A stretch of DNA of 51,120 nucleotides, taken from Eledone cirrhosa (taxonomy: Eukaryota). The position numbers and the translations under genes were made by a program. The stretch's first letter is position 1. The number at the start of each line of letters is the position of its first letter. Shown here one piece after another: positions 12,412-46,904 of the stretch. The notes beneath the pieces are model-generated. The model was not told the origin of the DNA and made no database searches. It saw only the letters and a program-made list of their open reading frames with translations. The stretch spans positions 1 to 51,120 of the forward strand of contig CAXHJY010000657.1 of assembly GCA_964016885.1 (NCBI GenBank), written 5' to 3'.

Positions 12412-12830
12412 ATAATATAAGATCAAAAGATGGTTAAAGGAGTTCCATGTATTTTATTATGCGCATTTCAAAAACAAACATCATCATGCAATAATATTTG
12501 TGTTTTCACCAGATAAAATAGGAGAACATGATATGGAGGCTAAAAAACACTTGTGGATAGTGCAGTTTTAAATCAACATGTTGATTTAAAACTGCACTAT
12601 CCACAAGTGTTTTTAAGCCTCCATATCATGTTCTCCTGTTTTATCTGATGAAAACACAAATATTATTGCATGATGATGTTTGTTTTTGAAATGCGCATAA
12701 TAAAATACATGGAACTCCTTTAACCATCTTTTGATCTTATATTATGCATACTCCAGTGCTACAAACTGTAGAGTGCTTCTTATCCGATATCTGCATTGCT
12801 TTATTGTACTACAATAAAACTCACCTCCTA
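12412..12830 (+). mobile_element. Fold-back (palindromic) Penelope-type pLTR insertion with hammerhead and 3' tail
   Basis: Spacer-less palindrome 12412-12745 (167-bp arms, centre AACA|TGTT at 12578/12579, a few mismatches). Unique tail 12746-12830. (TA)n on both sides. Confidence 0.8.
12637..12707 (+). ncRNA. Minimal type I hammerhead ribozyme
   Basis: Stem I TGTTTTAT/ATAAAATA; CTGATGA 12645-12651; long stem II hairpin; GAAA 12688-12691; palindromic stem III ATGCGCAT; cleavage triplet AUA. Confidence 0.85.
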
Positions 12831-13482
12831 CATATATATACATATATATATATATATGTATATATATGTATATATATGTATATATATATATATATATATA
12901 CATATATATATATATGTATATATATATATATATGTATATATATGTATATATATATATATATATATACATATATATATATATGTATATATATGTATATATA
13001 TATATATATATATACATATATATATATATGTATATATATGTATATATATATATATATATACATATATATATATATGTATATATATATATATATGTATATA
13101 TATATATATGTATATATATGTATATATATATATATATGTATATATGTATATATATGTATATATGTATATATATATATATATATATATATATGTATATATA
13201 TATATATATGTATATATATGTATATATATGTATATATATATATATATATACATATAAATATATATGTATATATATATGTATGTATATATATGTATATATA
13301 TGTATATATATATATATATACATATAAATATATATGTATATATATATGTATGTATATATATGTATATATATATGTATATATATATGTATATATATATGTA
13401 TCTATATATGTATGTATATATATGTATATATATATGTATATATATATGTGTATATATATATATATATATATATATATATGTA

Positions 13483-16190
13483 TAACTTTCATAACTTTGA
13501 TAGTTTTCGGCCAGTATTGGCCCAGGCCATGTCTAACTTTATAGCACCACCTGGAGAAGTCTTACAAATCAGTGTTTGGGCACCATGGCTCACTCGAGCA
13601 AAGAGTTATTGTTTACGGAGCATATCCGGGTGCAGGAGGCTTATCCGGTATTTCTTGAAGGAATTTATCCAAAGACTTCTTGAATTTGATGGATTTTGTC
13701 TGCTTTGATGTGTTTTGGTGTAATGTTAAATAGTGCAGGGCCAATTGAGGTAAAATAATTGTGCCGTATTGTTGTCATGTGATGCGCGTGGGATTTTTGT
13801 CGTGGGCGGATAGCATGGGGCCCAAGCCTTGTGTGTACACTAAAAGTGATGCCAACATCATTTGGGATAAGCTGATGGAATATTTTCCACATCATACAGA
13901 TAATGTAGCGCTCACGGCGACGTTGAAGACAATAAAGTTTGAGCTTTTCTAATCGACCCCAATAGTCAAGGCCTGTCATGCCAACTATCTTTTTTGTAAT
14001 TGACCTTTGGGTTGCTTCAACTTTCATGATACTTTGTTTCGTGTGGGGTGACCACAGTGGGCAACAGCATTCAAGGTGGGGTCGGGCAAAAGTGGAGAAG
14101 AGAAGGACAACAGTGTGGATATCTCTCGACTGGAAAGTTCTGAGAATCCAGCAACATATTCTGCGGGCCATATCAACTTTGCTGTTTATATGAGTGGCCT
14201 AGCTTATATTGTTGTCCACAATTACTCCCAGGTTTCTGATGGTATTGAAGCCACTAGAGTTTCACCCGAAGGAAGAGAGTATGGTAGTTTCAGGGCATCC
14301 TTTTTTCCAAAGTGAATTAGTTCAAATTTATCCTCATTCAACAGCATATTATTCATATCTGTCCATTGGATGACAGCCAGTAGGTCTGACTGAAGGCAAG
14401 TCCTGTCACCCACCTCATTGATGACTCTTTGGAGCTTGGAATCATCTGCGAAGATTCTGATGTTGCTGTGTTTGATGATGTCAGTAATGTCATTAATGTA
14501 GATGATGAAAAGAAGTGGGCCCAACACAGTGCCTTATGGGACGCCACTGCTGACTTTAGCAGGGCTTGATTTTACTCCTTCGACTACAAGTTGCTGGGTT
14601 CTGCCTGTCAGGAAACATTTGATCCACTGTAATAACCTTCCAAAGACACCAACATTGGATAGTTTTTTCAGTAGAATCTTATGATCAGCCCTGTCGAAGG
14701 CCTTGCTGAAATCATGGTAGATGACATCAGTGTTGGAGCCCTCTCCCAAGGCTCTCAAAACATCTCCAAAGTGATGCAGGAGCTGCGTTAGGCAGTCCCT
14801 TCCATTACGGAACCCATATTGGTTGGAGTTCAGCAGGCCGTTGCTTTCAAGAAAGTGGGTTATTCGTGATCTCACCACCCTCTCAAATACCTTGATAATA
14901 TGAGAGGTGAATGAGATCGTACGGTAGTTCACTACAAGGGACTTATTTCTCTTTTTGAAGACTGGGACGAAAGTTTTCAGGGATATAGCCAGTGTCCAGT
15001 GTGTTCCTCCACAGATTAGCAAGAGGAGTTGCAAGTTGGTGTCGACACACCTTCAGGATACAAGCAGGGAACATGTCGGGGCCAACTGCTGAATTGTGTT
15101 TAATTTCGTTTATTGCCGCTAAGACATCAGGGGCGCCAAACGTTATGTCTGATATAGTGTGTTGGGGGTTAATATCACTGATACGGCCCAAATCGGCTAT
15201 ATCAGCGTTGCTGAAAACAGCAGTATTGTTTCTGCAGTATCTCGCCCATGGTTTTGGCATTGTCCTGGAGTGTGCCATTTTCATCAACTAGGAGGCCAAC
15301 AGTGCAGACGGTGACCTTGTGTTTTTTAGCGAATGAGAAGAACACTTTGGGGTTGAGTTTGATTTTCTCAATGGCCCACCTCTCTTCAGCTATTCTCTTG
15401 TTATTGATGATGGTCATCATGCATTGCTGGAGGTTATATTTATTTGACTCAAGCAGGGTGATAGCCATTGAATGTGTGTGTTGCTGTTGGCAGTATTTTA
15501 GTGTGTTAATTTTTTTGTTTGTTCTTTTTATTTTTCTGATAATTGTTTTTCTGATTTGGGGGATACTGCACTTAGTTTTGTTCACAGGTTTTGGTGGGGT
15601 GTGTTTTGTACATATATTTGTGACAGTGTCTACAAAGATCTGCCAAGATGTTTTGATGTTGGTGGAAGTGTGTGCGTGTGTAAAAGACCAATCGACATGT
15701 GATAGTTCGTTCATAATTGCATCAGTTGGTCCATGTTATCAAATGGGTGGGCGGAGAGAGGACTCTGGGATTGGCTTTCGGCTGGTGGAATCTCAGCTTA
15801 CAAAGAACCATGTCATGGTCTGAGAGAAGGGTTTTTTCTACTGTAATATTATGTATAGTGTTAGTGTGGTTACTAAACACTAGATCCAGAATGTTCTTCT
15901 GGTTGCTTGTTGGTGCAAGGACAAGTTGTGACAAGAAAAACTCATTCATGAAGTCAAGAAGTGACTCGACAGCCTCTTTGTCAGTGGTTGTGGCTGTGGA
16001 GCCTGGTTTCAAACTACATGTACACCCATCGACACAGGGTAGATTAAAGTCTCCCATCAAAAGTATGTTGTTAGAATGGCACTGTTTGATAAAGCATTTA
16101 ATACTGTTGCGGCATTCTTTGAAACAGATTATGGGTGTTTGTGGCGGCCTATAGAGCCCACCTAATGTGAGGTCATTGGCTTTATTGTGC
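13483..16190 (-). mobile_element. Diverged, 5'-truncated LINE of family A with partial AP-endonuclease and RT; multiple frameshifts
   Basis: Minus-strand ORFs: GLYRPP...LMGDFNLP...ILDLVFSN...SDHDMV (APE, 15722-16192). RT fragments 14534-15034, 14222-14527 and 13665-14171 are homologous to 36-1747. Similar AAAGTTA tail. Confidence 0.92.
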
Positions 16191-17283
16191 ATATATATAT
16201 ATATATTATATACGCATATATATATATGTATATATATATATATACATATATATATATGTCTGCCTTTCCAAGTCTTTCTCCCTAAGAAATTTACCTTTTA
16301 TATATATATGCGTATATATATATATATATATATATATATATATATCATATATATCATATATATATATATATATATATATATATATATATCATATATATCA
16401 TATATATATATATATATATATATATATATATATCATATATATATATATATATATATCATATATATATATATATCATATATATATATATATATATATATAT
16501 ATATATATATCATATATATATATATATATCATATATATATATATGTATATATATGCGTATATATATATATATATATGTATATATATGCGTATATATATAT
16601 ATATATATATATATATATATATATATATATATATATGTATATATATGCGTATATATATGTATATATATATATATATATATGTATGTATATATGCGTATAT
16701 ATATATATATATATGTATATATATGCGTATATATATATATATGTATATATATGCGTATATATATATATATGTATATATATGCGTGTATATGTATATATAT
16801 ATATATATATATATATGCCTATATATATATATATATATATATATGCCTATATATATATATATATATATATATGCCTATATATATATATATATATATATAT
16901 GCCTATATATATATATATATATATATATGCCTATATATATATTTATATATATATATATATATATATATATATATATATATATGCCTATATATATATATAT
17001 ATATATGCGTATATATATATATATATATATATATATGCGTATATATATATATATATATATATATATATGCGTATATATATATATATATATATATATATAT
17101 GCGTATATATGTATATATATATATATATATATATATGCGTATATATATATATATATATATATATGCGTATATATGTATATATATATATATATGCGTATAT
17201 ATGTATATATATATATATACGCATATATATATATATATATATATATATATATATATATATACGCATATATAAGTATATATGCA
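16191..17283. repeat. (TA)n array with blocks of TC, GCG and GCC interruptions
   Basis: Direct reading. Confidence 0.95.
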
Positions 17284-45470: not shown

Positions 45471-45999
45471 AATATGGTTTTATAAATATAGTTTTCCATT
45501 TATTTAATATTGTAAATATACTCCAAATATTTGTCGAGTGCTTTTATATCAGTTATAAATATTTACTAGTTGTAACCCAACAATTTTAAATATAATTTTA
45601 CATGTATATATGTATATATATATATATATATGTATATATATATATGTATATATATATATATATATGTATATATATATATGTATATGTATATATATGTATA
45701 TATATATATATATATATATGTATATATATGTATATATATATATATATATATGTATATATATATATGTATATATATGTATATATATATATATATATGTATA
45801 TATATATATATATATGTATATATATATATATATATATATGTATATATATATATATATATGTATATATATATATATATATATGTATATATATATATATATA
45901 TATATGTATATATATATGTATATATATGTATATATATATATATATATATGTATATATACAATATTAAATAAATGGAAACTATAATTATAAAACCATATT

Positions 46000-46065
46000 T
46001 ATTTCATTATATATATTTCAGGGTTAACATATAAACAATATGCTATGCCTTCCTCAGACAAAATA
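46000..46065 (-). ncRNA. Type I hammerhead ribozyme in the Penelope 3' pLTR, same sense as the ORF
   Basis: Minus strand: TATTTTGT-CTGAGGA-AGG...CCT-GAAA-TATATA-TA-ATGAAATA. Confidence 0.85.
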
Positions 46066-46904
46066 CAATATAAACAGTTTTATAGATAAATAGATTCGAC
46101 ATACCGTACTAACATCTACTTGCATTTGAGAAGGTTAATTTGGTTGTGACAAAATTGTACACAGAGAGAAAGAAAGAGGGAGAGAAGGAAAGAGAGAAAA
46201 AGAGAGAAAAAAGAACGAAAGACAGAAAACGAAGAAAAAGAAAAAGAAGAAATGCATGGAACAAAATAGAGAGATGGAAAGATAGATAAAGAGAAGAACT
46301 TCATGTAAAGAAACAGAAAGAGATATATATATATAGAGAGAGAGGAAGTAGAGATAGATACATATATAGAAAGCTAGGTAGTGGAACGACTGTTGAATAA
46401 CGTATCAATGATACATTTATTTGTTTATTTATTTATTTAGCTCTAGTATTAATGTAAGGGAGATGTATGGAGGGAAAACCAGCTGTTAAATAGGGAGAGA
46501 AAAAATATAGAGAGAGAAAAAAGAGAGAGAGAAAATTCAAAAACATCCAGACACTAGCGAGGCGTACAAACCTCTGTTTTAATGTAGAGGTATTAGTAAT
46601 TACAAAACCAGCCTCTGCATTGTAAATATCAGTATTCCTGAATGAGATATGTATCCACAATGTGTGAAAATTAATGATCTTATGTTTAGTTTTTTTAAAA
46701 ATTCATATGTTTATGTGATAATTACAAACATCTATGTGAATGTACATGCTCAATTCTGCAAACCCTAAGTTCACGGAAAGTATTCTCAATGCGGTATAAA
46801 AATTCAAGTATACATATATGTGTATATAGAGTCAATATTACTATTTCTATCTCTACTCTACAAGATTATCTATCAAGCAAAGATAGAGCAGATTTCAATA
46901 TACT

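Follow-up and report, generated by a model that had tools for sequence, protein, structure and literature searches.

The systems closest to the one described here are Penelope-like elements (PLEs) and retrozymes that carry hammerhead ribozymes. For the Hydra clade of PLEs, Craig et al. 2021 described 27 families, nearly all inserted in (TA)n, with a hammerhead table, one member from Octopus bimaculoides and the statement, made in words, that the PLE tail is often present at one end only (PMC8557442; here and below, PMC8557442, PMC4209133, PMC3088659, PMC11167929, PMC7229834 and PMC10085705 are cited for the accessible part of each text). The minimal hammerheads of PLEs have low activity as dimers (Cervera and de la Pena 2014, PMC4209133), and the transcript of Drosophila virilis Penelope begins within the upstream pseudo-long terminal repeat (pseudo-LTR; PMC2377424). 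PAc, a Poseidon element from Anolis, nicks and extends both strands, with a predicted dimer and two internal start sites for its reverse transcriptase (RT) (Frangieh et al. 2024, PMC11167929), and one coral genome holds 16 hammerhead families (PMC7229834). Here we analyse a 51-kb contig of Eledone cirrhosa (CAXHJY010000657.1, 51,120 nucleotides; 'the window' denotes this whole stretch), which with its relatives elsewhere in the genome contains many new families of this known kind; their cores include unusual ones, and their copying has left a clear footprint. Most of its hammerhead islands are probably the ends (pseudo-LTRs) of protein-coding PLEs, often in the form of short mirror-image copies, a judgement that we attach to this origin and to the copying route proposed below taken together.

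The window has a G + C content (GC) of 28%, half of it consists of (TA)n-type repeat, and the host genome measures 3.0 Gb. Seven motifs have complete type I cores with stems I–III (12645+, 20162−, 36519−, 36614+, 45228−, 45413+ and 46057−), and the type I order of CUGANGA, GAAA and UH is found in these seven and in copies of their families. A strict structure scan of 12.4–46.1k returned six hammerheads, whereas 60 dinucleotide shuffles of its 24,517 non-microsatellite bases averaged 0.017 and none gave more than 1; stem II of the 46057− motif, at 3 bp, falls under the threshold of that scan, and the other six complete motifs passed it. Decayed cores at 12512−, 18791−, 20705−, 21639+, 30107−, 30191+ and 38057− belong to families that have intact cores in other copies. 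These data show that the hammerhead motifs in the window are real, whereas self-cleavage at the named sites and expression are predictions. A search of the window against Rfam at gathering scores gave no match, so routine annotation would overlook these motifs. A preliminary description of this DNA, made from its letters, had proposed seven complete cores with pairable stems, cut sites after 12699, 36708 and 45462, which are exact, a check of motif counts in shuffled sequence, which gave the result above, and fold-backs and tandems in (TA)n, which like the (TA)n flanks are directly readable in the sequence. Its view that stem III is mostly self-complementary stands with two corrections: family P (below) has a looped hairpin instead, and stem III at 21.6k is two bases longer than written. 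Its island at 17.8k is not retained as a hammerhead:

17800–17850 (+): core-like string with its core at 17813; a proper stem III and a family are absent, and of 40 genomic matches the window alone spans the motif.

Six of the ten islands noted there were traced to PLE open reading frames (ORFs), five of the Hydra clade and one Neptune-like. The features concerned are listed below, some of their boundaries, taken from earlier outputs or read off a ruler, being subject to an error of a few bases.

45958–49043 (−): 5′-truncated Hydra-clade PLE, family A, with RT and GIY-YIG coding sequence at 49043–47502, a 1.5-kb 3′ untranslated region (UTR), a hammerhead and a (TA)n end.
46000–46065 (−): family A type I hammerhead, complete, with its core at 46057 and a cut predicted by arithmetic after 46008.
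45130–45599 (both strands): family A fold-back, hammerheads at 45171–45236 (−) and 45405–45470 (+), tail on the + arm only (45516–45599).
12412–12830 (both strands): Hydra family B fold-back, intact hammerhead at 12637–12707 (+) with its predicted cut after 12699, mutated mirror at 12450–12520 (−), tail on the + arm.
36200–36762 (both strands): Hydra family C fold-back, hammerheads at 36418–36526 (−) and 36607–36715 (+), loop II of ~65 nt, tail on the − arm.
36980–37170 (−): Hydra family D end, hammerhead at 37005–37054 with A for U4 in its core; absent from the preliminary description.
21399–21755 (both strands): Hydra-family end with a short inverted piece, decayed hammerhead at about 21633–21710 (+).
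29927–30339 (both strands): putative Neptune-like PLE end, fold-back, mutated hammerheads at 30191 (+) and 30107 (−), tail on the − arm.
20764–20906 (−): short copy of family P (Hydra family E), the 3′ half of a U3-A8 hammerhead plus tail.
22430–22634 (both strands): family P fold-back, tailed + arm at 22497–22634, untailed − arm at 22430–22492.
22657–22727 (−): family P tail fragment.
30635–30737 (+): family P short copy, its start close to the cut site, accompanied by a short inverted piece.

The link to coding sequence can be seen within the window, where the motif at 46.0k lies 1.5 kb downstream of a frame that encodes RT and GIY-YIG and shares its strand (the frame, 49043–47502, is broken near 48.3–48.4k); when the window is counted, the family A hammerhead continues into this frame in 14 of the 30 best genomic loci. 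The 12.6k (family B) and 36k (family C) motifs sit 0.7–1.0 kb behind two other endonuclease frames, and in 7 of the 30 loci examined for 21.6k the motif follows yet another such frame. The 30.2k motif terminates an element with a CCHH-type endonuclease, in which CCHH and CxxC are present and the first linker C is absent in both copies read; its motifs suggest a Neptune-like element, with Nematis as the alternative. A single ORF with RT followed by a C-terminal GIY-YIG is whole in family E and partial in A, B, C and D, and the C-terminal position of the endonuclease led us to reject Naiad for the window ORF. RWR and DKT occur in families A and E and DKT in C, the CxCX5C linker in A, B, C and E, and CxxC plus CxH around E and N in A, B, D and E; insertion in (TA)n and a hammerhead near the 3′ end, both Hydra-clade traits, are found as well. 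Protein look-alikes (0.96–0.99) include GIY-YIG and RVT_1 clusters, others being unnamed; where recorded, the look-alikes are mostly eukaryotic. A resemblance to Hydra-1_Obim was noted by eye.

These results revise the preliminary description in several respects. The islands had been presented as free-standing mini-elements, and six of the ten are ends of autonomous PLEs with ORFs; the families had been called unrelated, and the five Hydra proteins compared share 30–54% identity; nothing was said to be visible to an ORF track, and the ORF at 47502–49043 lies just outside the interval that had been given. The attributions to type I hammerheads of the PLE type, to mobilization by a Penelope-type RT/GIY-YIG, now linked to the islands through their ORFs, and to a bias for (TA)n were right. 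The supposedly uncatalogued system is of a kind already published, as Hydra PLEs that carry hammerheads and target (TA)n (PMC8557442) and as the coral families (PMC7229834).

The Hydra-clade families described here agree with published ones in a C-terminal GIY-YIG, RW[KR], DKT, CxCX5C, CxxC/CxH around E and N and the lack of CCHH, and in (TA)n targets, a hammerhead close to the 3′ end, copies both tandem and inverted, and a tail at one end (PMC8557442). By contrast, at least six families with different ribozymes are present here; the units are 3.5 kb long with 3′ UTRs of 1–1.5 kb, whereas published elements are mostly <3 kb; U3-A8 cores, U4-to-A cores and loops II of up to ~65 nt are absent from the published Hydra table; and the fixed 5′ stop reported below is not described in the accessible text of PMC8557442. 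With minimal PLE hammerheads they share the type I form, a palindromic stem III, the presence of several consensus families in one genome, copies that are mostly single and truncated, opposite-strand pairs 100–700 bp apart and the U3-A8 variant, which is already known (PMC4209133, PMC3088659). They differ in that stem III of families P and D is a looped hairpin, so that a dimer should be unneeded there, and A for U4 is not reported in the accessible part of PMC4209133. A literature search on cephalopod PLE ribozymes, which covered sources other than subscription journals, Dfam and Repbase, found nothing beyond the papers cited.

How the copies begin and end gives the clearest view of how they may have been made. 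Two 3′ ends lie downstream of the cut in each of eight families: at about +57 and +137 in the 45k family, +46 and +138 in 12.6k, +57 and +242 in 36k, +129 and +165 in 30.2k, about +29 and +117 in 37.0k, +53 and at least +151 in 21.6k, +72 and +194 in 20k, and about +20 and +98 in P. Among 122 distinct head-to-head pairs from seven families (exact anchors, arms <2.5 kb apart), exactly one arm is tailed in 114, both arms are short in 4 and both are tailed in 4; independent choice by each arm would leave about half one-tailed. The genome yields a counted rule of one tail per fold-back. The 5′ ends were sampled in the first 30 pattern matches on one contig (C1) for each family. In P, 13 of 30 begin at −45 to −39 nt from the cut and 3 are longer (the ribozyme's 5′ half is missing from 27 of the 30); in 30.2k, 16 begin at −74 to −63 and 5 are longer; and in 12.6k, 14 begin at −130 to −119 and 11 are longer. 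The sampled copies of the 20k family show no fixed 5′ point. Fold-back centres in the window coincide with the 5′ points of their families: they lie ~122 nt upstream of the cut in the family B fold-back and ~73 nt upstream in 30.2k, and both arms of the P fold-back at 22430–22634 begin at the fixed point in loop II. A TATA-like box ~30 nt upstream of the fixed point in P and 30.2k, together with initiator-like bases, suggests that the fixed point in three families is likely to be a transcription start. Copies that start at the cut site are rare (a single one of the 30 sampled in 30.2k, one insertion in the 20k family and none in either 45k or 12.6k), which indicates that the template was mostly uncut there; the pile-up of 5′ ends that cleavage might leave was not seen, although the patterns used for P and D extend across the cut and could not have revealed it. 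Finally, of 14 P loci that extend at least 1.6 kb into the ORF, 12, four of which form one array, also reach upstream beyond the fixed point, so that such long copies need either a tandem transcript or a jump or circle.

We propose that a promoter in the pseudo-LTR would start the RNA at the fixed 5′ point and that the PLE RT/GIY-YIG protein, probably dimeric, would nick both strands of the (TA)n target. Each nick would prime one complementary DNA (cDNA) within the RNA, at one of the two start sites downstream of the hammerhead cut; most cDNAs would pass the uncut hammerhead to the RNA 5′ end, or stop early, and the joining of two cDNAs head to head would give a fold-back with one tailed arm. 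Long copies could come from a downstream start in a tandem transcript, from a jump or from a circle, and the hammerhead is predicted to cut the downstream RNA copy, not the copied template end. An origin as PLE ends with paired priming of both strands is the best explanation and, in our judgement, a probable one, its copying steps being those that we infer. It resembles PAc in the two start sites downstream of the hammerhead that define the tail, in the AT-rich target and in the use of uncut RNA as the main template; it differs in clade, and neither the pairing of one start site with each strand nor copies ending at the transcription start are reported in the accessible part of PMC11167929. 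The proposal offers base-exact predictions of RNA starts, RT start sites and cut sites.

Several observations weigh against this explanation. The 5′ stop is weak in family D (37.0k; 9 of 30 at −50 to −41, 13 longer) and no clear stop is seen in family A (45k), in which 29 of 30 copies reach −121 or beyond and 5 end at −135 to −121; moreover, the samples of 30 include paired arms of single insertions. A TATA-like box was not found at the fixed point of 12.6k, initiator-like hexamers are frequent in AT-rich DNA, and the P boundary is also splice-acceptor-like. The RNA start and cleavage are predictions, and circles a possibility. On the protein side, seven protein stretches and two others gave no Pfam match at the curated cut-off, PDB sequences gave none to the PLE proteins, and the putative clade labels follow protein motifs and not a tree. 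With Hydra and Neptune-like probes only, an ORF was found in 0 of 20 loci of the 18.7k family (41 matches) and in 0 of 30 loci of the 38.0k family (3,537 pattern matches).

A retrovirus-like form of copying is possible, if doubtful. RNA would start in or just before the upstream hammerhead and be cut by the downstream one, leaving a short terminal repeat; a dimeric RT would make strong-stop cDNA near the RNA 5′ end on both target strands and would have to jump to the 3′ end through the repeat. In family P that repeat would be 41 nt long. Because the fixed point of P lies inside loop II, the ribozyme would be incomplete in its 5′ copy, which such a start would disable in a retrovirus-like cycle. 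If this were true, tens of thousands of mini fold-backs would be failed jumps, the PLE hammerhead would have a job and the regeneration of pseudo-LTRs would be explained. A literature search on strong-stop or paired PLE priming, made outside subscription journals, found nothing beyond the papers cited.

It is unlikely that the islands are PLE ends whose fold-backs formed when one cDNA snapped back or switched template, with the 5′ point as an RT stall at RNA structure or a splice junction and not a transcription start. Non-templated or short duplicated bases do occur at many fold-back centres, 4 of 30 P copies end at the foot of stem II, and the 3′ end of the D. virilis Penelope intron maps to the hammerhead (PMC4209133). 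However, snap-back predicts a second arm that ends at or inside the 3′ end of the first and no rule for tails, whereas the ends are family-specific and one of each is present in almost all fold-backs; the P stop lies inside loop II, beyond the stem; and a common upstream exon is not seen at P junctions.

Two of the PLE families have unusual cores. The window copies of family P contain only the 3′ half of the hammerhead, without CUGANGA, and the 5′ half is found in full-length copies elsewhere. The P tail runs into an ORF start in two loci, and this junction is present at 445 genomic places, among them tandem arrays of 3.53–3.55-kb units with an open 719-amino-acid Hydra frame. Such arrays of near-identical 3.5-kb units with open 719-amino-acid frames were seen in loci L361–L365 (contig C1 91476000–91485000 and others). 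Family E/P is probably young, because its units are near-identical and their frames open, and this intact tandem element encodes a protein amenable to assay. The U3-A8 core is present in 15 of the 19 full-ribozyme copies listed from arrays, and a 26-nt P pattern has 40,650 exact genomic matches, each fold-back arm being counted once. P was also considered as the 3′ product of a hammerhead cut, which was rejected, the true 5′ half having the U3-A8 core. Searches for a canonical core upstream of P returned 3 and 52 matches; all 3 of the former and the 25 of the latter that were inspected are fold-back junctions or neighbouring elements. P did not fit the consensus features of hepatitis delta virus-like, twister or transfer RNA-derived RNAs.

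In family D (36,796 pattern matches in the genome), A replaces U4 of the core in 22 of 25 copies, and the same change is seen in loci L027 and L158; the ribozyme may be inactive or compensated. A literature search for U4A, made outside subscription journals, found no hammerhead paper with that variant. A U4 variant may, reportedly, already be described in the work of Luense et al. 2017 on PLE hammerhead variants. U4C, A6C and U3-A8 variants are mentioned, and U4A is not, in the accessible part of PMC3088659. These natural core variants, U3-A8 and A for U4, bear on whether an active ribozyme is needed at all.

Four further features contain hammerheads, and in the loci sampled no ORF was found for the 20k, 18.7k and 38.0k families.

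19908–20729 (−): 543-nt tandem unit in 1.5 copies, intact hammerhead at 20086–20167 with a predicted cut after 20091, mutated copy at 20629–20710.
19037–19873 (+): 600-nt tandem unit in 1.4 copies, type-SGC permuted hammerheads with cores at 19182 (predicted cut after 19141) and 19783 (predicted cut after 19742).
18707–18796 (−): decayed hammerhead of an older family, A9 changed.
38025–38062 (−): decayed minimal type I hammerhead copy.

The 18.7k and 38.0k families have intact cores in copies elsewhere. The 543-nt unit occurs head to tail, with up to four units per arm, has a longest frame of 62 codons and a GC of 37%, and gave 2,968 pattern matches; an ORF-linked copy or autonomous master was found in none of 60 loci, and no DNA match to the five Hydra masters was found. 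Since it has a PLE tail and inverted 5′ copies, it reads as a putative retrozyme-like passenger, and both it and the 600-nt unit are likely to be non-autonomous passengers of PLE machinery. In its non-coding head-to-tail units, one type I hammerhead per unit and low GC, the 20k family resembles metazoan non-LTR retrozymes and non-autonomous Chlamys elements such as MRC1 (PMC7229834, PMC8557442). By contrast, its unit is 543 nt long rather than 150–450, and it has a PLE-type palindromic stem III, a tail, inverted 5′ copies and (TA)n targets (PMC7229834). Diverged relatives in loci L018, L113, L173 and L192 keep the layout of stem III and tail and differ in stem II, L018 having an equal tandem period.

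These units accord with the view that the islands in general are free-standing, non-autonomous retrozymes, cut to unit length, circularized and reverse-transcribed by rolling circle. The 543-nt family fits in its arrangement, short frames and lack of a match to the Hydra masters, one of its sampled insertions (L471/L472) begins exactly at the cut site, the 600-nt unit fits as well, and PLEs have been proposed as retrozyme helpers (PMC7229834). For the window as a whole we nevertheless regard it as improbable: the six islands that extend upstream into PLE frames already refute it for themselves, the fixed 5′ stop of P, 12.6k and 30.2k is not expected from a circle, and no accumulation of 5′ ends is seen at the cut site.

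The 600-nt unit, absent from the preliminary description, has 87 exact genomic matches. Its two window copies both show the blocks in the order S, G, C and have stems I and III, and in a second SGC family, found in loci such as L026, L034 and L252, stems I and III differ yet pair. As in type-SGC hammerheads (Eckert et al. 2023, PMC10085705), the cleavage site at 19.1k and 19.7k is followed by GAAA and then by CUGANGA, and stems I and III cross. Unlike those, the 19k unit is an animal repeat, and its stem II, in which direct pairing between G and C is poor, seems by eye to be bridged by an extra upstream strand. A supplementary record ahead of Naiad_Ovul also has, by eye, the SGC-type order (PMC8557442).

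Hammerhead diversity is larger than the window shows. It was sampled in 303 fetched loci, which total 1.03 Mb, overlap and were picked beside these elements, and so give no genome-wide density. In them the scan made 441 hits in 52 clusters, some of which are subfamilies of others; 42 have a perfect core and 23 have at least two distinct copies. Compared across families, these 42 keep the perfect core fixed and have differing but paired stems. The high ribozyme diversity proposed earlier is borne out by these numbers. Each of five shuffles of 871 kb gave 0–1 perfect-core and 0–3 one-mismatch hits. That the motifs are chance matches in AT-rich DNA, as the family-less 17.8k string and the empty Rfam search might suggest, has next to no probability and is refuted except at 17.8k, given the excess over shuffles in the window and in the fetched loci and the thousands of family copies with conserved cores.

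Other features of the window surround these elements. Two more fold-back islands between (TA)n runs (21000–21240 and 21780–22430) have relatives in the fetched loci, and the scan found no hammerhead in them; a short island between (TA)n runs at 17280–17410, with GAAA followed by a small hairpin, has no relative in those loci. A repeat resembling a short interspersed element at 28231–28800 consists of a 150-bp tandem and then an inverted copy, a layout like that of PLE ends, and was perhaps moved by a PLE. Next to it, a decayed coding-like stretch at 28850–29840 (+) resembles by eye the endonuclease end of a PLE, and tblastn with PLE probes gave no match. By their motifs, 32300–35780 (+) is a putative decayed Helitron-like replication/helicase region, and 100–7060, 13490–16190 and 22800–24800 are putative fragments of endonuclease/RT frames of the long interspersed element type, one of them split by long (TA)n arrays. 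Lastly, a 0.6-kb repeat with an internal 36-bp duplication and (TA)n flanks is present as a near-identical pair at 43990–44605 and 50150–50780.

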